DNA of 64,000 bases from an uncultured bacterium (GTDB lineage: Bacteria; Patescibacteriota; Saccharimonadia; UBA4664), in the NCBI GenBank assembly GCA_963720265.1, contig CAVRET010000001.1:389916-453915 (forward strand), written 5' to 3'. The position numbers and the translations under genes were made by a program. Positions 8,265 to 64,000 of the stretch are shown here, one piece after another. Each line of letters begins with the position of its first letter. Positions within the stretch are counted from its first letter, which is position 1. The notes below the pieces were generated by a model. That model did not search any database and was not told the origin of the DNA. It worked only from the letters and a program-made list of their open reading frames with translations.

Positions 8265-8401
8265 GACAATAGTTACCTTAGGTTTACATAAATAATTTCT
8301 AGGCTGTGGTGGTATCCAATCAGACTAATATATCTGAGCTGGACCTGCCACTTCCTAGCGAGTGCCGCCGTGGACTGGGCCGGGCGGCGAGGTACCAGAT
8401 G

Positions 8402-8486
8402 AGTATAGGATATCTGAGGCGTAATTGTCAACCTTGTTTGCAGCTGGGTTATTAAGCTTGACAATTACGCTTATGTATGCTAATAT
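8402..8486. promoter_or_regulatory. Palindrome carrying back-to-back sigma70-like promoters: one for rplC (minus) and one for the small plus-strand gene
   Basis: Perfect 12-bp inverted repeat CGTAATTGTCAA (8420-8431) / TTGACAATTACG (8458-8469); each arm contains TTGACA. Plus strand: TTGACA 8458-8463, 17 nt, TAATAT 8481-8486. Minus strand: TTGACA (plus 8426-8431), 18 nt, TATACT (plus 8402-8407). Confidence 0.5.
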
Positions 8487-8515
8487 AATGTTTGTTTAAA
8501 CGAGAATGTACCAAC

Positions 8516-8695
8516 ATGCGTAGTTTTGCAGCTCGTCTTATCTGGTTACTCGCGATCGATGTGGCGCTGACCATTGGGTATACTTATACTCCGGCCAACT
8601 TCACGCTGCTGCGCGACGTACTGGACGGCGTGATCCTGATCACCATGGCTACTACTATGCTGATCACGTTTCGCCGCGTACTCGAAGACTATTAA
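8516..8695 (+). CDS. small hydrophobic protein (two predicted TM helices), hypothetical
   Basis: ORF 8492..8695; ATG at 8516 preferred; lies downstream of the plus-strand promoter; LIWLLAIDVALTIGY hydrophobic segments. Confidence 0.35.
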   Translation: MRSFAARLIWLLAIDVALTIGYTYTPANFTLLRDVLDGVILITMATTMLITFRRVLEDY

Positions 8696-8716
8696 ATAAA
8701 CAGATTTTACCTGTAT

Positions 8717-8749
8717 AAAAACTGCTTGGCTTCGGCCCGGCAGTTTTTA
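8717..8749. terminator. bidirectional rho-independent terminator between convergent genes
   Basis: aaaa ACTGCTTGGC ttcg GCCCGGCAGT ttttatt; imperfect 10-bp stem with A-tract upstream and T-tract downstream. Confidence 0.5.
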
Positions 8750-9022
8750 TTATGTCCAGAACGAGATGAAAAAGCCGGCAACGGCCAGGTTCAATAGGGC
8801 TGCCACAAGTAGAATGGCGTACTCAATTTTGCGGTCGATAACAAAGCGGTCGTGCATTGCCAACAAGACGCCGAGTAGTAGACCGATTGGCAGGACGACG
8901 ACGCCGTTTACCTTGATCCACAGTGTGCCAATGACGAAGTAGAGCAGGATTTTAAGAAAGTAAAAGTCGTCGCTTTCGCGCGGACTGGTCTTTTTCTTAT
9001 TTTTTACAGCTGCTTTTGCCAT
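8750..9022 (-). CDS. small membrane protein, hypothetical
   Basis: ORF 8750..9256; likely start MAKAAVKNKKK at 9022; two hydrophobic helices; the upstream part of the ORF looks like GC-rich read-through. Confidence 0.4.
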   Translation of the reverse strand: MAKAAVKNKKKTSPRESDDFYFLKILLYFVIGTLWIKVNGVVVLPIGLLLGVLLAMHDRFVIDRKIEYAILLVAALLNLAVAGFFISFWT

Positions 9023-9540
9023 GCGCTTATTAAAGCATAAGAAATATAACAGCGCCAGTAACTTTTGTCTGGTTGGGACCCGGCGGCCGCGAGGCAACCG
9101 GATCCCAACGCCCCCGACAGGGGAAGCGGCGGCCATTGTGGCCGGCTTCAGTGGTGTGACCGAGACTGGTAACGATGCTTGAATCGCCGTGTGTATCGGA
9201 CCAGAATTACGAGCGACGATGTCGTCATGGCCGCAGCAACACTGCAGACAATCCAAAACGGTGGATTGGGATAGTCGGTGCGGGTGCTACTGGCGACAGC
9301 CATGCTATTGCCGGCTTCACGCTGGGCTTGTAGCCGCTAGCTGCCTCTCGGCATGTTGCTACCGAATTCGTTGCCCATGGCCTTGTCAAGAGCCGTCAGA
9401 CCGAGCACTGTGACGACGACTCCCGCCACAACAACCCAGGTTACCCTGGACCTCAGTACGCGTTCCATCCGGAACTTCCCTTCACCTCGGGCGTCTCGTG
9501 TTACCGAGCGCCAACTGTGCGGACGTTATTACTATAACGC

Positions 9541-10815
9541 CTAGGCTTCTGGATCGACATAGTAGGTTTCGTCTTTCACCTCATCTGGCAAAAAGCCTTT
9601 GGGGTGTTTGAAATCGGCCTGCCAATGGTAGCCCTTGCCGTAGTCGAGCTCCTTCATAAGCTTGGTGGGGGCATTGCGCAAATGAAGCGGCACCTGAGCG
9701 GCTGGGTGCTCGCGGGCAGCGGCAGAAGCTCGGCCTATAGCATCGGTGGCGGCGCGGCTCTTGGGAGCCCCCGCGAGTGCGATGGTGGTGTGCGCGAGTG
9801 TGAGCCGGCCTTCGGGAAGGCCAATGCGTTCTATGGCCTGAAACGTGGCTACAGCCAGTGCAAGCATGGTGTTATCGGCGAGGCCGATGTCTTCGGAGGC
9901 AAAAATAACCATTCGCCTGGCAATAAATTTGGGATCCTCGCCGCCTTCGAGCATGCGGGCAAGGTAAAACAGAGCAGCGTCGATCTGGCTGCCGCGCATG
10001 GATTTGATATAGGCCGAGATAAGGTTGTAATGGTATTCACCGGTTTTATCATAGGCCGCGGCCGGAGTTTGCATGGCCTGCAGAATGTGCTCCTCGGTAA
10101 TGGCGGAGCTCGCGAGTGCGGCGGCGGCTTCGAGACCACCTAGCGCTACCCGGGCGTCGCCGGCCGACAAGCGGGCGAGACGATCACGAGCTGCCGGCTT
10201 GAGCGTTTTTCCAGGTAGTTCGACCATCGCGCGATCTAATATTTGTGCTAGCTGCTCGGGCATGAGGGCTTCGAGAACGACTACCCGGCTGCGCGATAAT
10301 AACGGCCCGATGACTTCAAACGACGGGTTCTCAGTGGTGGCACCGATGAGAGTGATTGTGCCGTTTTCCATGTGCGGCAAGAACGCATCTTGCTGGGCTT
10401 TGTTAAAGCGGTGGATTTCATCCACGAATAGCACGGTGTTTTGGCCCAGGCGGTGGCGCTCCTTGGCTTGGTCAATGACTTTTTTAACATCGGCTAGGCC
10501 ACTGGTGACGGCCGAGATTTCGGCAAAGGCGGCACCCGAACTAGCCGCAATAATGCGCGCCAGGGTGGTTTTGCCAGTGCCCGGAGGCCCCCATAATATG
10601 AGCGACACCGGTTGGCTGCGTTCAATCATGGTGCGCAAGAACTGGCCTTCGCCCACGATACTGGCCTGGCCGATAAAGTCGGCCAGTGTCTGAGGCCGCA
10701 CCCGGTCGGCTAGCGGACGTGTTTCAGATTGGTCGAACAGATTGGGCATATCATTATTATATGCCTGGTGTTCGGATTGACGAATATGCTCGAAAATGCT
10801 TCTATTGTTGCGCAC
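9541..10815 (-). CDS. rarA: replication-associated recombination protein A (AAA+ ATPase MgsA/RarA family)
   Basis: 424 aa; Walker A GPPGTGKTT, Walker B VLFVDEIHRFNK; MgsA C-terminal helical domains. Confidence 0.9.
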   Translation of the reverse strand: MRNNRSIFEHIRQSEHQAYNNDMPNLFDQSETRPLADRVRPQTLADFIGQASIVGEGQFLRTMIERSQPVSLILWGPPGTGKTTLARIIAASSGAAFAEISAVTSGLADVKKVIDQAKERHRLGQNTVLFVDEIHRFNKAQQDAFLPHMENGTITLIGATTENPSFEVIGPLLSRSRVVVLEALMPEQLAQILDRAMVELPGKTLKPAARDRLARLSAGDARVALGGLEAAAALASSAITEEHILQAMQTPAAAYDKTGEYHYNLISAYIKSMRGSQIDAALFYLARMLEGGEDPKFIARRMVIFASEDIGLADNTMLALAVATFQAIERIGLPEGRLTLAHTTIALAGAPKSRAATDAIGRASAAAREHPAAQVPLHLRNAPTKLMKELDYGKGYHWQADFKHPKGFLPDEVKDETYYVDPEA

Positions 10816-10838
10816 ACCTTCGAGAAAGGCGCTTGGCT

Positions 10839-11375
10839 ATGAACCAAGAAGGCAACCTGGGTAGCGTCCCGCAGATAGTAATGCCGGCGGACGTCACGCC
10901 CGATGTGATCCTGGCCCTGAATTTCATCGCAGCAGCAGTCGTGGATCCGCGCATCCGGCCGTCGTTTCAGGCGAACTGGTTGCTGCTGCTGGGCCAGACG
11001 GATGTCGCGATCAATGAGGGAGACCTGATCATTGCACTTCGGCTGATCATCGAGGCGGCAGGCGGCGAGTCGCCGAATGCAAACACGGTGTACAACTATT
11101 TCGATCGTCAGGTGAGTCTGGCCGGCTTTACCGGCTGCGGCAGAAATACCGGTCTGCTCGTGGCCCGCAGGCTGAAACTGATCGTCCCGGTCAGAGAAAC
11201 GCCCGGCACAGCGGCACTGGTGGTGTGTCACCGGGGCCCCACGGCCAGCTCATACTGGGGCCATGCCGTCCTCCCGGATGGACATGACTGGTACCGGGTG
11301 GTGCGATTGACATCCGATCCGGCCGGTTTTGTCGAGGAGATCAGCGCTTGCGAGGAGCGGCCATACAAGCTCTGA
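10839..11375 (+). CDS. hypothetical protein
   Basis: ORF 10686..11375 overlaps the rarA 3' end; ATG at 10839 preferred; no recognised domain. Confidence 0.45.
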   Translation: MNQEGNLGSVPQIVMPADVTPDVILALNFIAAAVVDPRIRPSFQANWLLLLGQTDVAINEGDLIIALRLIIEAAGGESPNANTVYNYFDRQVSLAGFTGCGRNTGLLVARRLKLIVPVRETPGTAALVVCHRGPTASSYWGHAVLPDGHDWYRVVRLTSDPAGFVEEISACEERPYKL

Positions 11376-11438
11376 ACCGTCGGAGCAAAAGCCCCGTGGC
11401 CGGTTGGCCACGGGGCGCAGTGCGTTTAAGGTCAGAGA

Positions 11439-11774
11439 TTATTGTTTTTCCAGCCGGACAGCCGTGCCGTAGGCGGCGACTTCACTCATGATTTGACCAA
11501 TTTCAGATGTATCAAAGCGCATGGCGAGTACGGCGTTGGCGCCTTTTTCAGCCGCTGCAGCGCGCAACCGCTCGATAGCGTCTTGGCGGGTTTTGCTGAG
11601 CAGCTTGGTGTAACCGCCCACTTCGCCGCCGAAGACGGTGCGGAAATTGGCGCCCATGTTTGAAAAGAGATTGCGCGAGCGCACCACCAGCCCAAATACC
11701 TCGCCGTAGGTTTCGACAATCTTGTAGCCGGGCACGTCATTGGTGGTTACGACCAGGAGTTCCGTGTTACTCAC
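11439..11774 (-). CDS. YbjQ/UPF0145 (DUF74) family protein
   Basis: 111 aa; GEVFGLVVRSRN...GGEVGGYTKLL...ANAVLAMRFDTSEIG...AYGTAV pattern typical of UPF0145. Confidence 0.8.
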   Translation of the reverse strand: MSNTELLVVTTNDVPGYKIVETYGEVFGLVVRSRNLFSNMGANFRTVFGGEVGGYTKLLSKTRQDAIERLRAAAAEKGANAVLAMRFDTSEIGQIMSEVAAYGTAVRLEKQ

Positions 11775-12373
11775 GGCTGTTGCACCTGCGGTGGCTGCGG
11801 GGCGGGATTGCGGCCGGACAGCGCAATCAGCCTGTCCTGATGCGCTGCGTCGTCAGCTACGCGCATGGCCGGCTTCATCATACCGGCGCCGCGCCAGTCG
11901 TCCGCCTGAGGCTCAAACCATTCGTACACAGCCTGGACTAATTCTGGATCAAGTTTTTCCGGTGCCTTAATCGCCCGCGCTAGATCCCAGGCGTGAATAG
12001 TGAGGTCGATAAGCTGATGCTGCAAGTAGGTGCGGGCCGGGATGTCGCCGTAGCTGACGTGTACGATACCGTCGAGAGCGGTGAGACCGGAGGCGGCAGC
12101 TAGCGCCTTGCCTGCGGCATCGGCCCAAGCTGCTCCTGGGTGCTGGCCCAAGATGTCGCCGTCGTATTTCGTGCCGACCTGTTCAATTGTTTTGCCGGCC
12201 AGCAAATCTGGTACCCACAGAATTTCGTATGTCATGTGTTGAACTAGGTCGTACACCGACCAGTCGTCGTTGGGCGTTGGCAAATTCCACTGGACCACCT
12301 GGACTTCGTTTACGTAGCGGCCGAATTCGCCCAACGCTCGGCCCAGCATGATGATTTCTTGTTCCTGATCCAT
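11771..12373 (-). CDS. DinB-like / maleylpyruvate-isomerase N-terminal domain family (TIGR03083/TIGR03086-like) protein
   Basis: 200 aa; 4-bp overlap with the downstream ybjQ-like gene; DinB_2 / MDMPI_N-like helical-bundle motifs. Call made by recognition of the family, not by search. Confidence 0.55.
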   Translation of the reverse strand: MDQEQEIIMLGRALGEFGRYVNEVQVVQWNLPTPNDDWSVYDLVQHMTYEILWVPDLLAGKTIEQVGTKYDGDILGQHPGAAWADAAGKALAAASGLTALDGIVHVSYGDIPARTYLQHQLIDLTIHAWDLARAIKAPEKLDPELVQAVYEWFEPQADDWRGAGMMKPAMRVADDAAHQDRLIALSGRNPAPQPPQVQQP

Positions 12374-12487
12374 AGTGAGCCTCCCGGCGTTACCAACTCA
12401 TTGTCTCACCTCATCTTAGGCAACGCTACCAAAGGCTTCGCCATTTCCATGCCGTATAATGTCCACACGTAATGAAGGGCCAACACT

Positions 12488-12829
12488 ATGAAGTTTCTGA
12501 TTCTTTACCGGTCTCCGAAAAGCGCCGAGACGATTATGCGTGAATCAAGTATGGATCAAATGCAGGCGAGTATGCAGGCGTGGATGGAATGGAAAAACCG
12601 TAATGGGGATGCGGTCGTGGACTTCGGCTCACCGCTGAGGCCGGACAACTACATTGTTGACGGTGAGATTAAAGATAGTGACAGTGACGTGACTGGATTT
12701 ACTATTATTCAGGCTGATACAGCTGATGAGGCGGTGGAGATTCTCAAGGATCATCCGCATTTTAAGACGCCAAACTCCCCGGGTATGGAGCTGTTGGAAT
12801 TCTTGCCAATGCCGGGAATGGAAGCCTAA
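12488..12829 (+). CDS. YciI-like / Dabb-fold small protein
   Basis: 113 aa starting MKFLILYRSP; ferredoxin-like fold pattern; TATAAT box about 30 nt upstream. Confidence 0.5.
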   Translation: MKFLILYRSPKSAETIMRESSMDQMQASMQAWMEWKNRNGDAVVDFGSPLRPDNYIVDGEIKDSDSDVTGFTIIQADTADEAVEILKDHPHFKTPNSPGMELLEFLPMPGMEA

Positions 12830-12869
12830 GACAGGTTTGATAATTGCTTGGGCGGGTGCCCGAGCCCCG

Positions 12870-13295
12870 TCAGTTCGTGGGGCCCGGGCGCATCTGTGTG
12901 AGTAGAGCTCTAAGTAGTTCGCGCTGGCCTTCTTTGTGCGCGAATTGGTATGGCTGCTCGTTTCGCGCTGCCCTCGGGCTGCCGTTCACTGCTATCCAGA
13001 CTTCCCAGAGGCCGCTTTTCGGGCCGATTGGCACTACGCACCGTATTTGGAGCTTTGGCCCCGTTGGGTTGTTCAGTAGCGCTATTCCGAGTGAGCTCCC
13101 AGGCGGCCCGCTTGAGGAAAGCCCGTACCATTGACGACCGTCGATTTCGAAATCCGCGCAGTCATCTTCCCGGTAGCCGTGTTGCTGCAGCATTTCGCAG
13201 AAGTGCAGCGCGGTGAGGCGTTGGATCGGCGGCACGCCAGTTGCATTTACGCGAGTGAGTAGCCGCCTAACAACGCTGTTGATATCCGTGGTCAT
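12870..13295 (-). CDS. hypothetical small protein, paralog set member 1
   Basis: 141 aa; shares the segment ...DFEIDGRQWYGLSSSGP... with the 13448..13864 product (PFEIDGYKYFGVGPG). Confidence 0.5.
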   Translation of the reverse strand: MTTDINSVVRRLLTRVNATGVPPIQRLTALHFCEMLQQHGYREDDCADFEIDGRQWYGLSSSGPPGSSLGIALLNNPTGPKLQIRCVVPIGPKSGLWEVWIAVNGSPRAARNEQPYQFAHKEGQRELLRALLTQMRPGPTN

Positions 13296-13447
13296 GTCAG
13301 TCCTCTCGTGTATCGATACTTGATTGAGTCGTCCACAGATGGTATAATTATATTATAATTACTAAAGATTTGCAATAACATGCGACGGCCGCCCAGGTTA
13401 GCCCGGACGGCCGTTAATCGCGCAGAAATGTGGCGAGGCTTGACCCG

Positions 13448-13864
13448 TTAGGTAAGCAACCCGGCCAGGGGTACTGCGAACACATGTTCGTAGTCATCGT
13501 GGAGCTCGTAGAAGCCGGCTTCGATCCCGTCGCGTGTCACAGCGATCACGCTGATGTCGCTGCGGGCGACCCACGACCCCGCTTCCCGGTCACCTGCCAC
13601 CTCGGCGTGCCACTCGAGTTGGTCGTTTGCGCCGCAGGTGAGGCCGACCCAGCCTCGCTGAAGCCGCCCGGGTCCGACGCCGAAGTACTTGTAGCCGTCG
13701 ATCTCGAAGGGCTGGAGCCAGTCAAACGGCACATCGTGTGCCAGGAGCGCCTGCAGGAGCCCGCCGGCAAATATCCAGTCGGTGGGCGTTAGCTCACGCC
13801 CGAGCGCTTCGCACACGCTCTGCCTGAGCGCCTGCCCTTCTTCGGAAGTCATCCGTGCGTCCAT
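13448..13864 (-). CDS. hypothetical small protein, paralog set member 2
   Basis: ORF 13448..13942; start MDARMTSEE preferred; FEIDG motif shared with the upstream neighbour. Confidence 0.5.
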   Translation of the reverse strand: MDARMTSEEGQALRQSVCEALGRELTPTDWIFAGGLLQALLAHDVPFDWLQPFEIDGYKYFGVGPGRLQRGWVGLTCGANDQLEWHAEVAGDREAGSWVARSDISVIAVTRDGIEAGFYELHDDYEHVFAVPLAGLLT

Positions 13865-13896
13865 TCTCACCTTCCCTGGTCTTGGATACTTCACAT

Positions 13897-14310
13897 TTAT
13901 GAGTCGCCGGGCATGTCGTTGGCCGCCTGGATGAGCCGGCATACGAGGTTTTCTGGTTCGCCGGTCGCTTGTGTGTCCAGCTCGCCGTTGCAGTGGAACT
14001 CGATGCCGCCCCCTTCGCCCACGCGTACGTCCCAGTCCTCACCGCGCTGCGATATGCGGATCTTGATGACCGGTACTCGATCTTTGCCTGTTCCTTCCAG
14101 CACGAGGAGAACATAGCCCTCGCCGCTGCTGTCAGGGACTTCACTCGGATCGTGCAGGTCGACGGTTGTCTGACTCAGCAATGCCTCGAGCTCCCCGATA
14201 ACGTCGAGGCCACGCACGTAGTAGGTGACGAGATCGATCTCCGTCGGGCTCCACTCTCTACCGATGGCGAACATCCCCAGCAGCTGTTCGATTGCGGGTT
14301 GCGCGTCCAC
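13897..14310 (-). CDS. hypothetical small protein
   Basis: 137-aa ORF in tandem with two similar-size genes; no recognised domain. Confidence 0.45.
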   Translation of the reverse strand: MDAQPAIEQLLGMFAIGREWSPTEIDLVTYYVRGLDVIGELEALLSQTTVDLHDPSEVPDSSGEGYVLLVLEGTGKDRVPVIKIRISQRGEDWDVRVGEGGGIEFHCNGELDTQATGEPENLVCRLIQAANDMPGDS

Positions 14311-14440
14311 TTCAACCTTCTTCCCTTGGTGTCGGCTAAAACCGATCTACTTTATACCATTTGGCAGCGTTTTGCGCAATTAGTGCGACCCCGACTACCC
14401 AACCGACTTCGTCGAGGACGAGGGTCTGAATGGTAACGCG

Positions 14441-14719
14441 GTGGTTCGTGGATGGTTGGTTTATTTGTCCTCTGAAGGAAGTTTATACCCCTGGGATTTA
14501 AAGATTGCGTCAAAGCCAAAGATTAGCTGCGACGAGTATTTATCTGCGATCTGCATTACTAAGGCGTCTACAAACGACACCGAGGCCTTCAACGAATTTA
14601 GTCTGACCGCGGCAGCTCGCAAAATTGTGGAGTTAGAGCTTTCAATTGGGAATTTTGAGTCTAGTAACCCTCCCAGAGACCCCTGGGCCTTTAGGCCAGG
14701 GATGAATGGGTCCGCTTAA
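14441..14719 (+). CDS. hypothetical protein (low-GC ORF abutting the IS200 left end)
   Basis: 92-aa ORF; GC clearly lower than surroundings; no homology recognised. Confidence 0.25.
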   Translation: MVRGWLVYLSSEGSLYPWDLKIASKPKISCDEYLSAICITKASTNDTEAFNEFSLTAAARKIVELELSIGNFESSNPPRDPWAFRPGMNGSA

Positions 14720-15250
14720 GGCGGTAGCGCCAAGGCAAAACCGGGTGACGTCCAACCTTGGCGCTGGCGCCGACAGTCTGGCATGCTGGGTATGTGAAGT
14801 CAGGTAAAAAATATTATTCCGGTGCGCATACGCTATATCGCCTGCAATTTCATATCGTCTGGATACCCAAGTACCGCAAAAGCATCCTGCGGGGCGAAGT
14901 CGCCACTGACCTGAAGCGATTATTCTTTCAGTGCGCAGAGATGAACGACTGGTGGATTGAGCGGCTGGCAGTGATGCCCGACCACATTCATATGCTTATT
15001 GAACTACCTCCCAGCATCTCGGTGTCACAGGTAGTACAAATATTCAAAGGTGGCTCAAGTCGGGCTATCCGCCAGACGCATCCTGAACTGGAAGAATGGT
15101 TATGGGGAGATAGCTTCTGGGCGGATGGCTACTTCGCCGAGAGTGTTGGTCGTAACACGGAGCAGGCGATTAAACGGTATATCGAAAATCAATGGAAAGC
15201 TAAACCCAGCATGCCGCCCCAAGGAAGCCTCGGGCTTTAGCCCGAGGTGG
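14712..15250 (+). mobile_element. IS200/IS605-family element (tnpA only) with subterminal hairpins
   Basis: Y1 transposase gene flanked by hairpins: GCGCCAAGG (14727-14735) / CCTTGGCGC (14756-14764), and CCTCGGGC (15228-15235) / GCCCGAGG (15240-15247). Exact ends not determinable from sequence alone. Confidence 0.6.
14758..15240 (+). CDS. tnpA: IS200/IS605 family transposase TnpA (HUH Y1 transposase)
   Basis: LYRLQFHIVWIPKYRKSIL...PDHIHMLIELPP...FKGGSSR...GDSFWADGYFAESVGRNTEQAIKRYIENQ; HxH and catalytic Tyr motifs; the start could instead be the GTG at 14794. Confidence 0.85.
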   Translation: MALAPTVWHAGYVKSGKKYYSGAHTLYRLQFHIVWIPKYRKSILRGEVATDLKRLFFQCAEMNDWWIERLAVMPDHIHMLIELPPSISVSQVVQIFKGGSSRAIRQTHPELEEWLWGDSFWADGYFAESVGRNTEQAIKRYIENQWKAKPSMPPQGSLGL

Positions 15251-15349
15251 TTCACGATCTTGCCCTCTGCCAGGGCCTTAGTGTGAGTACTATCATCGTT
15301 CTTAACGATCGCGATTAGTCCGCTCGAGTCCGCAATGGCATAGCGCATT

Positions 15350-15607
15350 TCATTCCGACTCGCCATACAAATACTTATCGGCGTTCGTGGAGAGATCTTT
15401 TGGCCCACCGCTGATCCCAAGATCGGCCAGCCCGGCAATAGAGCCTTGTTTTTCGCTTTTCGCCGTAAATTCATTCTCGGAAATGAAAACCAACCTAGTG
15501 AACGGTGGCGCTTGTTGCGTCCTATCCCTTGTAATCTCGATGTCAGTTGGTCCTATTTTGCTTCCACCAGTGACCAAATAATTAGATTGGATGACTAACT
15601 TCTCCAT
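15350..15607 (-). CDS. hypothetical protein
   Basis: 85-aa ORF directly downstream of the DUF3467 gene on the same strand. Confidence 0.3.
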   Translation of the reverse strand: MEKLVIQSNYLVTGGSKIGPTDIEITRDRTQQAPPFTRLVFISENEFTAKSEKQGSIAGLADLGISGGPKDLSTNADKYLYGESE

Positions 15608-15882
15608 TAGTCTGGGTCCAATTCATCTGCAGTCGTAACTGCCTGCGTAAGTGCCTCTAAAAATAGCCGCGCGTGCTTGCGCGTCAAAATGACACGACTA
15701 ACGAGTGTCCCTTCGGGCTTGTCGCTTTCATTCGCGAACACGAAATTAAGCACCAATTCCCCCTTTGTGACATTGATGTTGGCAATGTTTGCATATACGC
15801 CGGACCGGAGTTCGTTAGGTACAAGTACTTCTACATCCTTTGGCTGCTTTTCTTCCATGTCACTATTGTACCAGAAGATCAA
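15607..15882 (-). CDS. DUF3467 family protein
   Basis: 91 aa; [25 protein letters not shown]...[16 protein letters not shown] matches the DUF3467 pattern; lies 38 bp downstream of rpsJ. Confidence 0.6.
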
Positions 15883-15920
15883 AAAACCGCCCTTGCGGGC
15901 GGCTTATTAGCGCGCGGGAA

Positions 15921-16250
15921 TTACATCTTAATTTCGATGTCGACGCCGGCGGGGAGGGAGAGGTTCATGAGGGCGTCGATGGTCTTGGGCGAGGGCTCGG
16001 TGATGTCGATGAGCCGCTTGTGGGTGCGCATTTCGAACTGCTCGCGGGCATCCTTGTAGATGTGCGGGCTGCGCAGGACGGTGGTGACGTTGCGCTCGGT
16101 GGGCAGCGGAATAGGGCCCGCAACATGAGCGCCGGTGCGGGTGGCAGTATCAATTATTTGCTTGGCGGATTGATCAATGACTTTCGAATCGTAGGCCTTA
16201 AGGCGGATTCGGATGCGTTGCTTGTTTTCGGTCTCGGTAGTTGCTGCCAT
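15921..16250 (-). CDS. rpsJ: 30S ribosomal protein S10
   Basis: 109 aa; IRIRLKAYD...LDQSAKQII...GPIPLPT. Confidence 0.96.
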
Positions 16251-16312: not shown

Positions 16313-16342
16313 ATTTAAGCATGAGAACCTGGGGTTTGTCAA
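16313..16342 (-). promoter_or_regulatory. candidate sigma70-like promoter for rpsJ
   Basis: On the minus strand: TTGACA (plus 16337-16342), 18 nt, TTAAAT (plus 16313-16318), about 60 nt upstream of the rpsJ ATG. Confidence 0.4.
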
Positions 16343-16436
16343 TCTGACGGTATGAATAAGAGCTTTTTCGGGCGCACCCGGGACCCCGCGCCGTCTGATG
16401 GCGAGGTCCCGGGGCGGTGGTTGCCGAGGTACTGGA

Positions 16437-17372
16437 TCATGTGGTCAAGGCCGGCATGGACCCCAACATGTATGCCAGCAGCCAGTGGCGTTCCGGCTGG
16501 TCGGCGACTCCCCGCGCCACCTTAAACACGAAGGCTGTTGGTGGCACCTCGAGATTTTGCCGACCCACCTTAAGGAGCGGAATCAAGGCGGGCGTAGGCT
16601 GCCTACCCGTGATGAGCAGCGCCGTATACGAAATGCCGTCGACGACCATCGTGCTGTGCGCCTTGAGAAGCGAGTTGGGTAGCCGCATCCAAGGTCTGAG
16701 GTTGTGCGCATACGGCGGAGTCCCCGGCATGCACAGGCCGACGAGGCCGGTTTGGCCTAGTACCTTTGGGGCGGCTTCTACGAGGGCTTGGGGCGACCAG
16801 GCGTGCATGGCGACATCGGGGCGTCCGGGGAACGAGGCGAGCCGGATGCCGCCGACCTCGTGATCGTTTAGGGGTGTTTCGCGCGCTGCCATGGCAAACG
16901 GCAGCAGGTTGAGCGCGGCATGCCTAAATTCCAGCGCGAGAGCGCCGCCCATTTCTGGGTCGTTGAGGGTGGTGTCGTCGGTTGTGACCACGTACGTCAG
17001 CTCGTTTGGCGGCCATGACGGGTTGAGACCGATGAGCGCAGCTCCGAGCCCGAGGTGGAACGTGACGAGTCCGGGGCCCGTGACAACCGCGGTACTGAGC
17101 CGGTCGACTTGCACTTGGACGGCTGAGAATTGCTGTTGATGCCGGTAGGCGTCGGCTATGCTTCCGGCCTGGGCGAAGTCTTCGGTTATCCAGACGGTGG
17201 CCAGTCGCTGGTAGCGGCTGAGTGCCTCTATCTTGCCGCCCATCGCGGCGGCGTAAGCGTTGAGCCACGTCCAGGGCCAGACATGAAACGTGACCGACCT
17301 ATCTCCTACGACTTGGTCAAGCGCGATGGGACCGCCGGGCGGTCCGGTGTCGGGCGCCGCGCGTTGCGACAT
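16437..17372 (-). CDS. hypothetical protein (very high GC, about 65%)
   Basis: 311-aa ORF; no recognised domain; divergent from the proteasome-like gene. Confidence 0.5.
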   Translation of the reverse strand: MSQRAAPDTGPPGGPIALDQVVGDRSVTFHVWPWTWLNAYAAAMGGKIEALSRYQRLATVWITEDFAQAGSIADAYRHQQQFSAVQVQVDRLSTAVVTGPGLVTFHLGLGAALIGLNPSWPPNELTYVVTTDDTTLNDPEMGGALALEFRHAALNLLPFAMAARETPLNDHEVGGIRLASFPGRPDVAMHAWSPQALVEAAPKVLGQTGLVGLCMPGTPPYAHNLRPWMRLPNSLLKAHSTMVVDGISYTALLITGRQPTPALIPLLKVGRQNLEVPPTAFVFKVARGVADQPERHWLLAYMLGSMPALTT

Positions 17373-17432
17373 GACACTTCCCTTCGTAGAACCTCAGTGG
17401 ACAGTATCAGATTAAAGCGGGCTTTTTGGTAT

Positions 17433-18191
17433 ATGTCAATCGATATGGCTGGCGATTGTACCATGACGTCAAGTGATAATGTTGATATAATACTTGCGCC
17501 TAAAGGACGACTCGATACAATGACACTGGCAACAAACATCAAACAGTGTCACGGCGTAACTGTTGCCTCCGATGGTTTGGCAAAAAGGATCAGCGATGAG
17601 ACCGGCGAATTATCATATCTTGATACGCACCCCAAAGCTTTCATCGTCTCAGAGCGCATAATGCTCAGCCGAACCATGGTTTATATGCGCGAGGAGCGAG
17701 CTGATAACATAAATGCGTTCTTGCAGGGCTATTGCGAGGGCAATCCGATGGCTTCAGTTGAAGACGTGGCAAGAAAGGCCGCCCGTGTTACAAAACGCCT
17801 TGTGGATGAGACGAAAGCCGCAGGCGACCGCCAGGCATCAATGCAGCTTCTGATAGCAGGAGTGGGCGTAGATGGCGAAGTTGAAATATACCATATTGAT
17901 GACGAGGCAAACGGCTACAAGGTAACTCTGGTCGAGGGGAACTTCTGCAGCATAGGTAACAACAAACAAGCTGATGATTTTCTCGACCAACGAATAAGGG
18001 ACGTTAGACTGACACCGAAATCGGCTCTTAGGATAATCCAAAGAGCAATGAAAGAATCTGTAACAAAGCAAAGGCTGGACGGCTACCCACAAACTATCGG
18101 CGGCCAAATATTCGCCTGGCATATCAGCAAGTCCGGCATTACCGAAGTACCAACAACGGAGCTGGACGTAATTCCTATCCAATCCGATTAG
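17433..18191 (+). CDS. proteasome beta-subunit-like Ntn-hydrolase (HslV/Anbu-like)
   Basis: About 252 aa from ATG 17433. TLATNIKQCHGVTVASDG resembles the proteasome N-terminal T..GVVLAADT; LLIAGVGVDGEVEIYHIDDEANGY...FCSIGNNKQADDFL resembles the LIAGxD..GPxLYxIDPSG...AIGSG core. GC is about 47%, against about 60% for the backbone. Confidence 0.55.
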   Translation: MSIDMAGDCTMTSSDNVDIILAPKGRLDTMTLATNIKQCHGVTVASDGLAKRISDETGELSYLDTHPKAFIVSERIMLSRTMVYMREERADNINAFLQGYCEGNPMASVEDVARKAARVTKRLVDETKAAGDRQASMQLLIAGVGVDGEVEIYHIDDEANGYKVTLVEGNFCSIGNNKQADDFLDQRIRDVRLTPKSALRIIQRAMKESVTKQRLDGYPQTIGGQIFAWHISKSGITEVPTTELDVIPIQSD

Positions 18192-18224
18192 CCATAGCTC
18201 CAAAACGCTCATTTCTGCGCTATA

Positions 18225-18788
18225 ATGCCTCTACCAAGGAGATACTTCGTGGAGAGCCCGCAGCCTAAAGAGAAAAACTGGTTTCAGCGCCATCCGGTAT
18301 GGACTGTCGTTTTGGCACTCCTGGCCGTATTTATGATCGTGGGAGCTGCCAGTAACAACTCGCAAAGTACCAACACGGCCTCGTCGTCAACTCCAACACC
18401 AACCCCGGCCCCGGCTGTAAGTTCGACGACCCAACAGGTAGATGCTTGGTTTACCAAGTACGGTGAACCAGTAAGTAGCATTCTTGCCACTGATCTGGGC
18501 AAGCTACGGTCGGATGCCAACAACGAAAACATGGCTGCTTCGTCCAATGACTGCCAGCAAGTTGAGACTGAAGTCACAATCGCCCAGTCGGACCCGGCAA
18601 TTCCAGATAGTTCCATGGAGAAGAACTGGAGCACGGGTCTGGCCTCATGGGAGTCGGGTGCCCAAGATTGTGTATCGGGCGTAGCCGGTATGGATACTGG
18701 CCTAATTACGCAAGGCGGAAGCGAAATGCAGCAGGGCACCACGGCTATAGAGGCCGTGGCGGCGGAAATAAAGCAGCTTAATCAGTAA
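18225..18788 (+). CDS. membrane-anchored secreted protein, hypothetical
   Basis: 187 aa; N-terminal TM helix VWTVVLALLAVFMIVGAA, then a Ser/Thr/Pro linker and a soluble domain. Confidence 0.5.
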   Translation: MPLPRRYFVESPQPKEKNWFQRHPVWTVVLALLAVFMIVGAASNNSQSTNTASSSTPTPTPAPAVSSTTQQVDAWFTKYGEPVSSILATDLGKLRSDANNENMAASSNDCQQVETEVTIAQSDPAIPDSSMEKNWSTGLASWESGAQDCVSGVAGMDTGLITQGGSEMQQGTTAIEAVAAEIKQLNQ

Positions 18789-18792
18789 TGCC

Positions 18793-19770
18793 TGGTATTA
18801 TCACTGTAGAATCAAGGAGCCTTGCAATGAATGACGATAAAGACGCGCCAATCGACGAACGCCGCTTTCGGACGACGCTTGACCGCGCTATTCTAGCGTC
18901 CGATCAACCACAGCGTAAAACAGAGGACGGACATCGTGACGATGAGAGTAGCGAAACGCGAACTCATCAACGTAATGCTGTAGATGCTGTGGACTCACAT
19001 GATGGTACGTCCCCGACAGAGAGCGCTTCAACTGACCCCAAAAACCCTCAATAGTATTTGTGGTGACATTGCCACGCGCATACTCGCGGGCAGCGTGGTT
19101 AACTGATTGATGCAGTCTGAGCCGCGAGACATGGTCGTAAATTCGTGAGGTATCGGTATGAAGCTCGGCTTCGGCCGCTACGTTGGCGTTAATGAAATTG
19201 CGAGCGTTACTGACGCTGGCCGTGTTTACGGCGTTAGCTTTCACGGAACCGCCGCGCTCGACCAAGCCGAGCACCGGAGTCTTAGAGTTAAAACGCTCGT
19301 CAAACTTGTGCTTGCCGCCGATGTAGGTTTCATCAGCCTCGACAATTCCGGATAACACGCCGCCCTCGTCGGTCATTACCTTGCGGATTTGGCGGGCAAT
19401 TCTCCACGCGCACTTATATGTCATTCCGAAGTGCCGTTGCAGCTCCAGGGCCGCTACACCGTTCTTAGCGTTGGTCATGAGCAAGATGCAGTAAAACCAT
19501 GTCCGAAGCGGTGTCTCGGACTTGTGAAAGATAGTTCCAGCAGTTGGGGAAACTTGCTTGCCGCAAACTGAGCAGGCATAGCATTTGCGAGCACGAACGC
19601 GATAGAAGCCGTTAACCTTACCACACTTCGGGCAAGGCTTATCCGCAAACTTCAATTTGAACATATACTCTAAGCAAGCATTGTCGTCGGGGAACTCGCG
19701 TTCAAAATCTCGAATAGTCATACTTTAATACTAATCCAGATATTACTTGATGTCAAGGTATAATTACCAT
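18793..19770 (-). mobile_element. IS1595-family (ISXO2-like) insertion sequence, approximate bounds
   Basis: Transposase ORF plus imperfect terminal inverted repeats GGTATTATCACTGTAGAATCAAGG (left) and CTTGACATCAAG...GGTAATTATACC (right, reverse complement). Ends are approximate. Inserted immediately 3' of the ATP-grasp gene stop. Confidence 0.55.
18888..19721 (-). CDS. IS1595 family transposase (ISXO2-like; N-terminal zinc ribbon + DDE domain)
   Basis: 277 aa; MTIRDFEREFPDDNACLEYMFKLKF..CPKCG...CSVCGK zinc ribbon; ...ETYIGGK...HTDTSRIYD...NTIEGFWGQLKR typical of IS1595. Confidence 0.88.
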   Translation of the reverse strand: MTIRDFEREFPDDNACLEYMFKLKFADKPCPKCGKVNGFYRVRARKCYACSVCGKQVSPTAGTIFHKSETPLRTWFYCILLMTNAKNGVAALELQRHFGMTYKCAWRIARQIRKVMTDEGGVLSGIVEADETYIGGKHKFDERFNSKTPVLGLVERGGSVKANAVNTASVSNARNFINANVAAEAELHTDTSRIYDHVSRLRLHQSVNHAAREYARGNVTTNTIEGFWGQLKRSLSGTYHHVSPQHLQHYVDEFAFRYSHRHDVRPLFYAVVDRTLE

Positions 19771-19774
19771 ATGG

Positions 19775-21094
19775 CTAGACCGTGAGCCGCGATTGGTAGC
19801 GTTCTTGGCCGGCCGTGAGCGGCTCGGTGTCGATTTCGACAGCGCGCTCGATGGCGCGGATGTCGTCACGGAGCTGGGTGCGATTTGGGTTGAACAGCAC
19901 AACCTCAAGAACATGGTTGCCGCCGTGCTTGGCAAACCGGCAGAGGTCGCCTGGGTGTTTGAAGACCTGAAGGCGCTCGATGGACGGTAGCTTGCGGATG
20001 GTGCGCAGGCCGTCGATGTGCCTGAGTCGACCTTCGTGGCGGGGATAGAATTGCAAAAAGGCCGAATAGCCGAGCGGCTCGGTTGGAATAACCGGTTCTT
20101 CGCCCATGCGCACGAGCAGGTCGTTTAAGGCGTGGTTGATGCCAAAGGCTTTGGAGTACATTTCGTGCCGGAAGCCGCCGATGCGCGGACCGAGCTCAAT
20201 GATTTTCCAGCCGTCGGTGGTGAGCATGAGTTCAACGTGACAGGTGCAGCTGCGCAGGCCCAAGGCTTTGACCGCAGCGTCGGCCGCGGCTTCCGCACCC
20301 TTAATTTGCTCGAGTGTAAGTTGAGACGGCGTGGCACGCATATAACCAAAGACGTCTTCATAGCCGATGTCGCGGCCGGTTTTGCCGTAGACCGGCGGCG
20401 CAAACCAGATCCGGCCGCCTGTCCCAACGTAAACGTCCATGGAGAAGTAGATACCGCCGTCCATAAAACGCTCAACAATTACCTCCGGCTGACGCCCCTG
20501 GCCCGCGCCATAGCGAGGCGCGATATGCTGCATTACCTGCCTCAGTGCGGCTTCAAACTCGTCGTGGTCTTCACACACACTAATGAGCAAGCTGGAAGTG
20601 AGGCCGGATGGCTTGACGATCAGCGGATAGCCAATTTCATGCTCAATTCGCTGGACGGTGGCCGGCGTGGCATCCCTCGCAATTGTGAATTTTGGTGATA
20701 GCTTGGGGTCGTAGGCGTCAAATTGAGCTCGCATTTTGGTCTTTTCCGTGGCCCACTCAAGCGTTTCAGGCAGCGGCAGTGTGAGGTGCGGAAGGTGCGT
20801 CGCCAAATGCTTAAAATACGCGGCGCTGGCGTCATCCTTGCAGGTGACGACCAGAATGTCGTCAGCGTACGGCCGGATGGCATTAGCCAGCGCATCAAGG
20901 TCGTCGAAGTCGATTTCTAGCCGCACTAAACCGTGCAACTCATCGGCGCCGGAGGGATCTTCGGTATGTTGATTGCGCAAAAGGATCGGTCGTAAGGGCC
21001 GGCCTAGCATGTCTTGGAGCCGTTCGAAGGCTTGCGGCTGCTCCGGGGCAATGCTGTTAACAAACAGGACACTGCTACGAACAGGGGTATTCAT
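19775..21094 (-). CDS. ATP-grasp domain protein (carboxylate-amine/peptide ligase-like)
   Basis: 439 aa; YPLIVKPSGLTSSLLISVCEDHDEFE...VIVERFMDGGIYFSMDVYV...CHVELMLTTDGWKIIELGPRIGG are ATP-grasp core motifs; about 150-aa N-terminal pre-domain. Confidence 0.8.
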   Translation of the reverse strand: MNTPVRSSVLFVNSIAPEQPQAFERLQDMLGRPLRPILLRNQHTEDPSGADELHGLVRLEIDFDDLDALANAIRPYADDILVVTCKDDASAAYFKHLATHLPHLTLPLPETLEWATEKTKMRAQFDAYDPKLSPKFTIARDATPATVQRIEHEIGYPLIVKPSGLTSSLLISVCEDHDEFEAALRQVMQHIAPRYGAGQGRQPEVIVERFMDGGIYFSMDVYVGTGGRIWFAPPVYGKTGRDIGYEDVFGYMRATPSQLTLEQIKGAEAAADAAVKALGLRSCTCHVELMLTTDGWKIIELGPRIGGFRHEMYSKAFGINHALNDLLVRMGEEPVIPTEPLGYSAFLQFYPRHEGRLRHIDGLRTIRKLPSIERLQVFKHPGDLCRFAKHGGNHVLEVVLFNPNRTQLRDDIRAIERAVEIDTEPLTAGQERYQSRLTV

Positions 21095-21274
21095 GTATGT
21101 TTCGATATCTAATCTTTCTCACTAGGTGTGACAAACGTTCCCATTATGGTCCTGCCACCAACTGATATCAAGAGGTTGACAGTGCATAACTTGTCATTTC
21201 GCTTTAGAACGTTGCGAGCCCCGATCGGCGCAGGCTCGCTACGCGGATCAGGGCTCCTTTGATGTCGGGCGGGG

Positions 21275-21889
21275 TTAGCCGTGTTTTTTGCTCGTGCGGT
21301 TGCGCAGGATTATCACTGCCAGCGCGGCGACGACTGTGGCGATGATCCAGCCGATCAGGTCCAGGAACGTCAGCGCGAGCGCCGCCGGGTAGCCGGCCAT
21401 TAGCGCCAGCCTGACGATGTAGCAAGCGGCCGGGTGATACGCCAGGTTGCGTCCGCTGCGGGCGTACCCGAAAATGCTGGTCACCACCAGCGTAAGACTT
21501 ATCACGAGTAGGGCCGAGCGTGTATTGGGCACGGCATACCCTGCTGTCGTCAGGATAAGGTACAGCGCCACGGCATACGCGCGCTGCCGGAACAAGGCCC
21601 GGCCCTTGTCGTCTAGTACTCGGCCGTACGGCTTCGCCTGCGCCCAGACATTTGCGCAGTCGCGCGCACCCATCGTGTACAGGAATAGCGGCGCGCTGAG
21701 CAGTATGCAGGCCCAGGAGAACAGCTCGGTGTCCAAGCTGTATGTGCGCGAGGCGAGCCTGACGACCATGCCGACCGTGAACAGTGTCACGCCCGCGATG
21801 GCGGTTGTCAGCCTTACCGGCCATCCGACCGGGACTATGCCTAGCGGTAGGCTACGGCTCGTTCTGGGCGGCGAATGGTGAATTGTCAT
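21275..21889 (-). CDS. polytopic membrane protein, hypothetical
   Basis: ORF 21275..21991; start MTIHHSPPR preferred because the upstream part is AT-rich; 5-6 hydrophobic helices. Confidence 0.5.
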   Translation of the reverse strand: MTIHHSPPRTSRSLPLGIVPVGWPVRLTTAIAGVTLFTVGMVVRLASRTYSLDTELFSWACILLSAPLFLYTMGARDCANVWAQAKPYGRVLDDKGRALFRQRAYAVALYLILTTAGYAVPNTRSALLVISLTLVVTSIFGYARSGRNLAYHPAACYIVRLALMAGYPAALALTFLDLIGWIIATVVAALAVIILRNRTSKKHG

Positions 21890-22020
21890 GCTCCGCTGCT
21901 TTCTTTGCAGGCGACACAAGGCCGCAGAGTGATCGAAAGAACTAAACTTGATAAATATAGCGTAATATGTCATTAAATACAACTTATTCAACTTCGGTTG
22001 CTTGTTAAAAATGACATACC

Positions 22021-22071: not shown

Positions 22072-23257
<1,186 letters not shown>

Positions 23258-23374
23258 AAGTTGGACTCCTTAAAAATTTTTTTAGACATTAAAAAATAGT
23301 GCCTGACCGCCCAGAGACTAAGCTATTATAGGCAGCCGAAGGGTAAATTGTAAAGGCCTAAGCCTATACAACAG

Positions 23375-23917
23375 CTACTTGATGTGGCCGAGATGAAGGC
23401 CGGCCAGCAGTACGGCAGCGACAGTGGCGCTTTGATTTATCTCGCCGGCTGCGATCATCTTTTTGAGCTGGGTCCAGGTAAAGGCCTGGGTCTTGTTAAT
23501 AACATCGTCGGCTGGTGCGACCTCTTTAGCTCGGTGTAAGCTCTTGGCCACAAACGTGATAATGCGCATGGGCGCGAGCGAAATGAGCGGATATTGCTCG
23601 GCCGGCAGCTGTTCCCAGTTATCGGCGTGTAAACCGGCCTCTTCCGCAAGTTCGCGTTTGGCAGCAGTAAGTTCGTCGTCGGTGTCGGCGCTGCCGGCCG
23701 GGAGTTCCCATGAATCCTGGCCGATGGTGTAGCGGTTTTGACGCACGAGCAGCACTTTGCCGTGCTGATCGACGGCGACCACCATAACGGCCGGTGGCGT
23801 TTCGATCCAGCCGTAAGTGGTTGGCACACCGTCGGGCCGGATGACGCTATCCTCGTGAACCGTGATGTGCGTGTTTTGGTAGACAATTTTCGTGCTGAGG
23901 CGCTGCCATTGGCTCAT
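23375..23917 (-). CDS. NUDIX hydrolase (ADP-ribose pyrophosphatase-like)
   Basis: 180 aa; Nudix box ELPAGSADTDDELTAAKRELAEEAGL. Confidence 0.8.
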   Translation of the reverse strand: MSQWQRLSTKIVYQNTHITVHEDSVIRPDGVPTTYGWIETPPAVMVVAVDQHGKVLLVRQNRYTIGQDSWELPAGSADTDDELTAAKRELAEEAGLHADNWEQLPAEQYPLISLAPMRIITFVAKSLHRAKEVAPADDVINKTQAFTWTQLKKMIAAGEINQSATVAAVLLAGLHLGHIK

Positions 23918-23950
23918 GGGAGATTCCCGTTATGCCTTCATTATAGCGCG

Positions 23951-26043
<2,093 letters not shown>

Positions 26044-54486: not shown

Positions 54487-54566
54487 GCACTCAAGTATAA
54501 GTTAATGGGTAGATAAATAAGCTGCATTCATTCGAAATCTTTTTGCAATGGTCGGGGGCATTTCGT

Positions 54567-57150: not shown

Positions 57151-57414
57151 TGCCCGCTCTATCCTTAGATACTATATCCTTTAAGGCTATATGTCAAGAG
57201 ATGCGCAGAATAACTGTATGCGTAGCAGACCTTTGCATCCTCACAAAAATACCGCCTCTGACGTGCGGTGTTTTTGTGGGAAGCACTATACTTATTTGGA
57301 TAACTCATTTGGTGCCCTTGAACGACATTCATTTGAACTCTTTTTGCAATGGTTGGATGCTTTTCGTCAAGGTTTTGAGGGGGAATCGCGATGACTGGCA
57401 ATTTGACTTATTTT

Positions 57415-59198: not shown

Positions 59199-59451
59199 AT
59201 GGCTGGGCTGGCTTGCACTCTCTAAGGCGAAGGATTGTTTATTTTACTCTTTTGCGAGCAAGTTTTACCAGCTCTGCGTCGCGTTCGTAAGCACGCAGCC
59301 GACCGCTCAGGTAACCGAGACGATGATGAATTCCGTCGCTCATCAGTCGCCAGTTAGTGTCAGCTAGGGCCTCCTCGACCATCTTCTTGAGTACATTTCG
59401 GCTATCATGGCCGCTACTGCCGTCCGCCCGGAGTGACAGCTACAATGGGGA

Positions 59452-63876: not shown

Positions 63877-64000
63877 GTAGCTCGCTTTAGATTGATTGTA
63901 TGGTATCTGTTCGCATTTGCAAGATGTCAGGGGCTTGTCTCTCCCCTCTCTTCCCATGGTAAGGGCAGCACGTGATGCGTCAAGGTCGTTCCAACCAGGT

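Follow-up and report, generated by a model that had tools for sequence, protein, structure and literature searches.

A divergent proteasome-family gene as a probable passenger of an IS1595-family transporter insertion sequence in a Saccharibacteria genome

An IS1595-family element between tuf and rpsJ

The DNA analyzed here is a window of 64,000 nucleotides (the whole stretch, numbered from its first letter) of contig CAVRET010000001.1 in assembly GCA_963720265.1, from an uncultured bacterium of the Saccharimonadia. Our subject is a gene at 17520..18191 on the + strand (49% GC) that encodes a 223-aa homologue of the proteasome-family N-terminal nucleophile (Ntn) hydrolases. This gene, hereafter the proteasome-family gene, was recognized by a match to the Pfam family PF00227, by colinear alignments with 20S beta subunits, and by a gene call. 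It lies inside a mobile element of 2,318 bp and 50.7% GC (17451..19768), a "transporter insertion sequence" (transporter IS, or tIS) of the IS1595 family, which is delimited by inverted repeats, a target-site duplication, synteny with a related contig, L081, and breaks in short-read contigs. Read from its cargo end, the element contains the proteasome-family gene, a second + strand gene for a membrane-anchored protein (orf179, 18249..18788), and, on the - strand, the transposase gene (18888..19721); a gene without recognizable domains, orf311, flanks it on one side, and a gene for an ATP-grasp ligase on the other.

The element ends in 28-bp terminal inverted repeats, GGCGATTGTACCATGACGTCAAGTGATA at the cargo end (17451..17478, + strand) and GGTAATTATACCTTGACATCAAGTAATA, in the - strand reading, at the transposase end (19741..19768). 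One repeat matches the reverse complement of the other at 22 of 28 positions; each starts with GG, and the repeat sequence opens GGYRATTRTACC... Immediately outside stands a perfect 8-bp direct duplication of the target site, ATATGGCT, with the left copy at 17443..17450 and the right copy at 19769..19776 (both + strand), the latter overlapping by two bases the stop codon of the ATP-grasp gene (19775-19777). The repeats were located by local alignment, an inverted-repeat tool with an 8-nt seed having missed them, and we estimate the chance that repeats and duplication jointly occur near this transposase gene at ~3e-9. The ends, GGTAATTAT and GGCGATTGT, can also be set beside ggnnatTAT, which we take to be the end consensus of the ISNwi1 group; this comparison is a lead, not a test. 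The proteasome-family gene and orf179, both unrelated to transposition, lie between the two inverted repeats of one IS, the arrangement by which a tIS is recognized, and between 18789 and 18887 no true transposase inverted repeat with a duplication of its own was found. Target-site duplications of 8 bp are usual for the IS1595 family (PMC8101967), one of the two families in which passenger-carrying tIS occur (bioRxiv 10.1101/2021.05.26.445724; PMC3129680).

The transposase (277 aa) combines an N-terminal Zn-ribbon (PF12760, E=1.2e-9) with a DDE domain that spans profile positions 2-152 of 153 (PF12762, E=1.6e-37). Plasmid-borne transposases annotated as IS1595 family share 31-42% identity with it. 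A preliminary description of this locus, made from the letters alone, had already placed an IS1595 transposase and a non-permuted ATP-grasp gene downstream of the proteasome-family gene, and both are borne out. Each end of the element carries a sigma-70-like promoter candidate, identified by consensus match only: one (ATGACG, 17 nt, TG-extended TATAAT; 17463..17491, +) overlaps the cargo-end inverted repeat and points inward at the proteasome-family gene, and the other (TTGACA, 17 nt, TAGTAT; 19728..19756, -) overlaps the opposite repeat before the transposase gene. An 88-aa open reading frame (ORF; 18788-19054, +), antisense to the 3' end of the transposase gene and called as a 75-aa gene in a short-read contig, has no family match and is probably spurious.

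Comparison with related genomes places the insertion in the backbone of the lineage. The best match to ribosomal protein S10 of the window comes from a Saccharibacteria metagenome-assembled genome (L001; 81%), in which tuf directly adjoins rpsJ, and the 90%-identity cluster to which S10 belongs is named Candidatus Saccharimonadia/Saccharibacteria. Much closer is the JGI contig L081, with identities to the window of 99% for S10, 82% for the ATP-grasp, 81% for RarA, and 79% for L3. There, rpsJ follows the ATP-grasp gene after 82 bp with no insert, and the proteasome-family gene, orf179, the transposase gene, and orf311 are all absent from between the two. DNA homology between L081 and the window covers 21156-19794 and restarts at 16322-15921, so that a stretch of 3.47 kb is specific to the window; the ATP-grasp gene, kept beside rpsJ in L081, is therefore a backbone gene of the lineage. 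By its Pfam domains, this gene (19775-21094, -) encodes a non-permuted ATP-grasp of the LAL type (PF13535 and LAL_C2), and together with a 238-aa multi-pass membrane ORF it occupies the interval between tuf and rpsJ (19775-21991; 61-1377 in L081), the pair being preceded by a strong tuf terminator at 22051-22017. The proteasome-family and ATP-grasp genes are convergent, with orf179 and the transposase gene intervening.

Before the insertion, the minus strand carried the ATP-grasp gene, then, after ~76 nt, orf311, and then rpsJ. The divergent arrangement of orf311 and the proteasome-family gene, which the preliminary description had treated as a feature of the locus, was created by the transposon insertion and is thus accidental. 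As that description had it, orf311 (16437-17372, -; 64% GC by measurement) encodes 311 aa without a recognizable domain: nothing in Pfam, NCBIfam, PADLOC, PHROGs, or PDB, nor among plasmids, phages, and viral contigs, matches this ORFan. It nevertheless looks like a coding sequence, with GC1/2/3 of 0.67/0.49/0.75 and the best score in its own frame. Given its position ~76 nt downstream of the ATP-grasp gene, on the same strand before the IS arrived, orf311 may belong with that gene. The segment that holds it (16323-17442; 1.1 kb, 63% GC) is absent from L081, is separate from the transposon, and has GATTGACA at both borders.

Contigs assembled from short reads provide an independent view of the element. 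We compared the window with Logan contigs of run ERR11523669, taken from graphs built at k=31 (Logan paper). Three of them match the region: L083 (window 17480-15226) and L084 (17451-19058) at 100% identity, and L085 (22119-19739) at 99.9%. The two flank contigs, L083 and L085, stop at 17480 and 19739, exactly 30 nt (k-1) inside the element ends, and the internal contig, L084, begins with the element's first base and runs unbranched through the proteasome-family gene and orf179. By the logic of de Bruijn graphs, overlaps of k-1 at both ends are the signature of a repeat with different flanks. A polymorphism between occupied and empty sites was considered and rejected; it would break contigs at the duplication, unlike the observed breakpoints. 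Records of the orf179 protein exist for two large contigs, one of >1 Mb and one of 0.2-1 Mb; an identical proteasome-family protein is recorded on both, and the single-copy neighbors S10, ATP-grasp, and NUDIX on the 0.2-1 Mb contig only. The element thus appears to be present in at least two copies.

The passenger genes

The + strand frame ending at 18191 is uninterrupted and open from 17130, and the other two frames across 17400-17860 are stop-rich. Two starts come into question: ATG 17433, which yields the 252-aa product and the Anbu-like length originally read from this locus, and ATG 17520, which yields 223 aa. Decisive is the position of ATG 17433 in flanking DNA, beyond the end of the mobile element, so that the start at 17520 is favored and, judged from the sequence, the native protein is the 223-aa form. 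One public gene call also has 223 aa; a Shine-Dalgarno-like AAAGGA lies upstream of ATG 17520, and the TG-extended promoter-like site at 17463-17491 falls within the longer ORF. From 17520, the product begins M-TLATNIKQCHGVTVASDG. The core motifs LIAGVGVDGEVEIYHIDDEANGY, FCSIGNNKQADDFL, and GVTVASDG, by which the gene had first drawn attention, are all present in it, but the literal T-x-x-GVTVASDG segment is not: the actual N-terminal sequence is M-T-LATNIKQCH-GVTVASDG.

The composition of the gene sets it apart from its surroundings, if less strongly than the initial figures of ~47% GC against ~60% for the backbone implied: measured GC is 49.0%, compared with 56-58% for backbone genes and 55% for the window. 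For the element as a whole, 50.7% GC stands against 56-57% in the backbone. GC at third codon positions is 0.51 versus 0.63-0.72 in the backbone, and the codon-usage log-odds is near zero, which points to foreignness of the element or its cargo. By codon-position GC and codon-usage score, the gene's own frame is the best one. The complete identity of L084 to the window over 17451-19058 implies that the ORF is no assembly artefact; frameshift errors of the kind encountered in tuf and fusA (see below) were considered for this ORF and are ruled out by the same contig. Exact-protein look-ups returned no record for the 223-aa form, the 252-aa form, or the transposase.

The second passenger, orf179, has a GTG start preceded by an AAGGAG Shine-Dalgarno site; an alternative ATG at 18225 would give 187 aa, and the 179-aa form is that of the public gene call and occurs on three contigs. 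The sequence suggests a single-pass membrane protein with a hydrophobic segment at residues 17-35 (Kyte-Doolittle 2.42), a linker rich in Ser, Thr, and Pro, and a C-terminal domain that contains two Cys; in Pfam, NCBIfam, PADLOC, and PHROGs it matches no family. No terminator-like site separates it from the proteasome-family gene, and the two are probably co-transcribed.

Family membership and divergence

The assignment of the 223-aa protein to the proteasome family, proposed in the preliminary description, is upheld by PF00227 ("Proteasome"), which matches at 34.2 bits (E=2.5e-8; the gathering score is 22.4) and pairs residues 86-187 with profile positions 83-180 of 189. Among ten control sequences, one reversed and nine shuffled, the best E value was 0.08, and PF00227 was never matched. 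The score together with the negative controls indicates that the family signal is real, though limited to the C-terminal half; membership in the PF00227 Ntn family appears well supported, with the C-terminal ~100 residues as the part for which it is demonstrated. Furthermore, because the match begins at residue 86 of the protein and position 83 of the profile, the length of the unmatched N-terminal portion fits a placement of Thr2 on the family Thr1. A profile of three 20S beta subunits aligns with residues 81-211 (hhalign P=1.7e-4), and phmmer alignments to yeast beta5 and the Thermoplasma acidophilum beta subunit are colinear with the Pfam match, pairing RLDGY...GG with HRDAYSGG (Asp166) and including the C-terminal strand pair. 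The predicted order of secondary structure elements, H1-H2-S-S-S-H3-H4-S-S, is compatible with the fold.

The HslV-like label that the protein had been given does not hold. With a hidden Markov model (HMM) built from 115 HslVs, its score is within the range of 2,000 shuffles, and hhalign against the HslV alignment gives P=0.34; compared with the P of 1.7e-4 for the 20S-beta profile, this puts the protein nearer to the 20S-beta type than to HslV. A MAFFT alignment to HslV is visibly wrong in mid-sequence, and hhalign in global mode against six reference sequences yields a probability of 0.4%.

Beyond these profile matches, the protein is isolated. In a word-indexed search of 5.8 billion proteins, it matched nothing but itself, at E<=0.001 as well as at E<=10, and an exhaustive phmmer search of 1.84 billion cluster representatives returned, besides itself, a spurious, repetitive, eukaryote-like protein (P0005). 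It matches no solved structure in a PDB sequence search at E<=10, and nothing in NCBIfam, PADLOC, or PHROGs. Relatives are likewise absent from species-representative genomes, JGI metagenomes, viral contigs (2.9 million), phage genomes (50,697), and plasmids, the phages and plasmids having been searched with tblastn. When HslV and 20S beta sequences were used to seed a profile search, it collected near-identical HslVs only (3 clusters at 80% identity), an alignment useless for structure prediction.

Candidate active-site residues

At the N-terminus, the sequence offers a plausible threonine nucleophile. Threonine is a permissive residue for removal of the initiator Met, and with the Met-Thr start of this protein, such removal would leave Thr at position 1. 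In the MAFFT columns, Thr1, Asp17, and the Gly128 position are shared with HslV and the 20S beta subunits; Asp18-Gly19 (D17/G18 of the mature protein) aligns with D17/E17 of these families, a support that is positional, not statistical. The equivalent of Asp166 is kept in RLDGY, and the Ser169 position is possibly Thr. For Lys33, the candidate is Lys39 (mature K38), in PKAFIV as compared with KKVIEI. The residue check called for when the gene was first noticed thus finds the Thr at the would-be processed N-terminus and the Asp17 equivalent, and for Lys33 a candidate only, Lys38. On these assignments, the protein may be catalytically competent.

Comparison with known systems

Among the known relatives, the 20S beta subunits (PF00227, MEROPS T1A; T. 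acidophilum PsmB, yeast beta5, Mycobacterium tuberculosis PrcB) come closest. The profile match extends from helix H2 to strand S10; QLLIAG corresponds to QLLVGG; the Gly128 and Asp166 positions and the C-terminal strand pair are colinear; and Thr at the mature N-terminus and, by position, Asp17 are shared. Unlike them, the protein has no propeptide, no Gly47, and no alpha-subunit partner, carries replacements at Ser129/Gly130, has an N-terminal half that the profiles do not see, shows only ~15-19% identity, and is encoded by a transposable element. With HslV (ClpQ), it shares a bacterial host, the Met-Thr N-terminus, and, by eye and by MAFFT, an identical T1...D17-G18 spacing, but it is longer (223 aa versus ~176 aa), has the longer C-terminal strands of the 20S type, escapes detection by the HslV HMM, hhalign, and NCBIfam, and has no hslU within the window.

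Anbu and BPH are stand-alone bacterial proteasome homologues with neither a propeptide nor a dedicated AAA+ unfoldase (PMC8665760). The protein described here resembles them in being a stand-alone bacterial homologue of 200-250 aa without a propeptide; however, it matches no solved Anbu or BPH chain at E<=10, and instead of the Anbu operon, with its transglutaminase, alpha-E, and permuted ATP-grasp genes, its neighbors are a transposase gene and a membrane ORF. More generally, Pfam scans of nearly all sizeable ORFs of the window detected no HslU, Mpa/ARC, Pup, Dop/PafA, transglutaminase, permuted ATP-grasp, or 20S alpha subunit, which extends the initial impression that the known partners are missing from the window; ClpP, trigger factor, and the RarA/MgsA ATPase were found in the same scans.

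The census of Fuchs, Alva and Lupas (2021) added 22 further families of proteasome homologues, most of them detected by profiles only, narrowly distributed, and with neither a conserved genomic context nor an AAA+ partner; among the families that it covers, PPH, AAH, and DAH are phage-carried, and the proteasome family at large includes the inactive alpha subunits and the ligase connectase (PMC8665760). Candidate phyla radiation (CPR) bacteria, Patescibacteria, and Saccharibacteria are unmentioned in the text of that census (PMC8665760), and we came across no proteasome homologue reported from the Saccharibacteria lineage in our literature searches. Compared with the descriptions of these families, the protein is likewise a divergent orphan of narrow distribution with no AAA+ partner and mobile carriage, and differs in being IS-borne rather than phage-borne, in its CPR host, and in having no Gly47.

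As for the vehicle, the element shares with IS1595-family tIS of the ISNwi1+/ISPna2+ type the Zn-ribbon and DDE domains, repeats starting with GG, the 8-bp duplication, internal passengers, and a size of 2.3 kb. It differs in its cargo, a proteasome-family gene and a membrane-anchored ORF, and in a transposase no more than 42% identical to the annotated plasmid-borne relatives. We know of no described tIS with such a cargo.

Other features of the window

Several further observations on the window are recorded here in their own right. The tuf and fusA genes (22072-25975, -) are split by single-base indels into at least four and at least five frames, respectively, and rpoB and rpoC are intact; a short-read contig, L086 (98.7% identical), reads through two of the tuf/fusA indel sites with intact frames, so that the frameshifts in these highly conserved genes probably arose during consensus building or polishing of the assembly and do not mark pseudogenes. 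On the other side of the insertion, rpsJ, which has its own terminator-like hairpin (15905-15884), stands ~7.6 kb away from the other S10 operon genes (rplC starts at 8264). The stretch between them (8264-15921) differs in content from L081 and holds a DUF3467 gene, an IS200-type Y1 transposase gene, ORFans, and YCII-like, DinB/MDMPI-like, and RarA/MgsA ATPase genes. The IS200/IS605-type transposase gene (PF01797; 14758-15240, +), inside which L083 ends at 15226, is probably also multi-copy, with near-identical proteins on several contigs. Two adjacent ORFans (12870-13295 and 13448-13942, both -; 141 and 164 aa, 59-63% GC) look like paralogues with the common motif FEIDG..(W/Y)(Y/F)G; L081 lacks both, and Pfam, PADLOC, and PHROGs yield no match for either.

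Farther away, a restriction-modification island (59357-63957) comprises genes for a Vsr mismatch endonuclease (59357-59929, +), an Eco29kI-type restriction endonuclease (59872-60510, -), a C-5 cytosine methyltransferase (60494-61660, -), and a 696-aa HATPase_c_3 (MORC/GHKL-like) protein (61867-63957, -). A 715-aa protein (46228-48375, -) contains four ricin-type beta-trefoil lectin repeats (PF00652, E=9e-68), which is of note for an epibiotic bacterium that needs to attach to host cells. Finally, a 48-nt direct repeat (54525-54572 and 57326-57373; 83% identical, 2.8 kb apart) lies among ORFs without family matches.

Discussion

The most probable reading of these observations, in our view, is that the gene encodes a highly divergent, lineage-restricted Ntn hydrolase of the proteasome beta/HslV superfamily that travels as a passenger of an IS1595-family transporter IS and is not part of a chromosomal proteasome system. 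The suggestion that it might be a recently transferred orphan, one of two offered in the preliminary description, was essentially right: the gene came inside the element. In the scenario that we favor, the IS would have entered a Saccharibacteria genome between tuf and rpsJ, at the stop codon of the ATP-grasp gene of the backbone; the inward promoter-like site at the cargo end would drive joint transcription of the proteasome-family gene and orf179, and the one at the other end that of the transposase gene. Methionine aminopeptidase would then strip Met1 and expose Thr1 as the nucleophile, with Asp17 and the Lys33 equivalent, probably Lys38, filling out the triad. By analogy with known family members, the protein may self-assemble and cleave peptides or unfolded proteins without ATP. 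The same independence of a dedicated AAA+ partner is assumed for Anbu, BPH, and most of the 22 orphan families (PMC8665760), and an ATP-independent, N-terminal-threonine peptidase activity is the likely mode of action.

Against this reading weigh a number of observations, most of which concern the N-terminal half of the protein and its chemistry. Residues 1-90 alone have no Pfam match, local hhalign and phmmer alignments begin only around residue 72-109, and the N-terminal 85 residues are thus without statistical support of their own. The Lys33 equivalent requires a 5-residue insertion, and MAFFT leaves Lys39 unaligned. There is not a single Gly between residues 29 and 70, which implies that Gly47 of the oxyanion hole is absent, and Ser129/Gly130 are replaced by Asn-Asn, with SIGNN where GSG is expected, Gly128 being kept. 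No homologue is available by which conservation of the putative active site could be gauged. AlphaFold2 models are of low confidence (predicted local distance difference test 37.7 in a single-sequence run and 36.1 in a run with 20 HslV rows), and fold searches are non-significant or meaningless, so that the Ntn fold is putative. The 20S beta, HslV, and CodW references used with MAFFT, phmmer, and hhalign were entered by hand. With regard to the element, the promoter sites are consensus matches that occur at chance density, and the second copy is deduced indirectly, from assembly-graph breakpoints and contig records.

Much of this is what would be expected if the protein had a proteasome-like fold but were no threonine protease, being instead a dead scaffold, a decaying passenger, or a repurposed transpeptidase or ligase like the archaeal connectase. 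The missing Gly47, the Asn-Asn replacement, the ambiguous Lys33, the invisibility of the N-terminal half to profiles, and the extreme isolation of the sequence all lean that way, and inactive alpha subunits and connectase occur within the same family (PMC8665760). We regard this alternative as possible, but a frame that is intact and identical in an independent short-read assembly, promoter-like and Shine-Dalgarno-like signals of the gene's own, the retained Asp166 equivalent, and Met-Thr and Asp17-Gly18 at the exact family positions, an odd coincidence for a dead gene, tell against it.

That the Pfam match is a false positive, concealing an unrelated fold or no real gene at all, is unlikely. 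Such an error would sit easily with a match of only ~100 residues, no PDB sequence match at E<=10, no confident AlphaFold model, and no homologues; yet the E value of 2.5e-8 beats the curated Pfam threshold while the controls are negative, the small 20S-beta profile independently finds the same region (P=1.7e-4), about 30 of the top 50 Foldseek hits, all of them non-significant, are proteasome chains, and codon-position GC and codon usage are best in this very frame. Still less probable is an ordinary, diverged chromosomal orthologue of HslV or Anbu next to which an IS happened to land. A Met-Thr start without a propeptide is indeed found in HslV, Anbu, and BPH, and IS elements often lie near unrelated genes, but the HslV profile and NCBIfam models are blind to the protein, hslU and Anbu-operon genes are absent from the window, the gene lies within the bounds set by the inverted repeats and the 8-bp duplication, with no transposase-proximal repeat between 18789 and 18887, L084 continues without a branch from the first IS base across both passengers, the gene is missing from the syntenic site of L081, and the cargo is recorded on two large contigs. 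A tag-and-degrade system, in which the ATP-grasp would serve as a tagging ligase for the protease, possibly with the 311-aa protein, as the preliminary description had entertained, has proximity within 1.6 kb and the absence of the classical partners in its favor but is the least credible of all, being contradicted by L081, which keeps the ATP-grasp (82%) beside rpsJ without the proteasome-family gene, orf179, transposase gene, or orf311, by the boundaries of the element, whose duplication overlaps the ATP-grasp stop codon, by the convergence of the two genes across orf179 and the transposase gene, by a second copy of the cargo on a contig without this ATP-grasp, and by the pre-insertion position of orf311, ~76 nt downstream of the ATP-grasp gene on the strand opposite to the proteasome-family gene.

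The passage of a proteasome-family gene within an IS1595-family element also carries a methodological caution: here, an apparent operon context was produced by transposition, and an Anbu-like length by reading into flanking DNA. The known diversity of proteasome-like proteins already extended far beyond HslV, Anbu, and BPH, some families being phage-borne, and to it the present case would add an insertion sequence as a vehicle and a CPR/Saccharibacteria host. With a 223-aa protein and a 2.3-kb element, it offers a small and concrete target in which two questions become testable, namely, what use is made of an orphan proteasome homologue without an unfoldase, and why a transposon carries one. 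More tentatively, the proteasome-family gene and orf179 might be a pair of genes kept by selection as the cargo of a transposon that is active in an epibiotic CPR bacterium, and the protein might be the founding member of an IS-spread subfamily of proteasome homologues in which the altered surroundings of the active site reflect a changed chemistry, as with connectase. If so, its role would be a specialized one, for example, in peptide or protein processing, exclusion or defense, or interaction with the host cell, rather than in housekeeping proteolysis.

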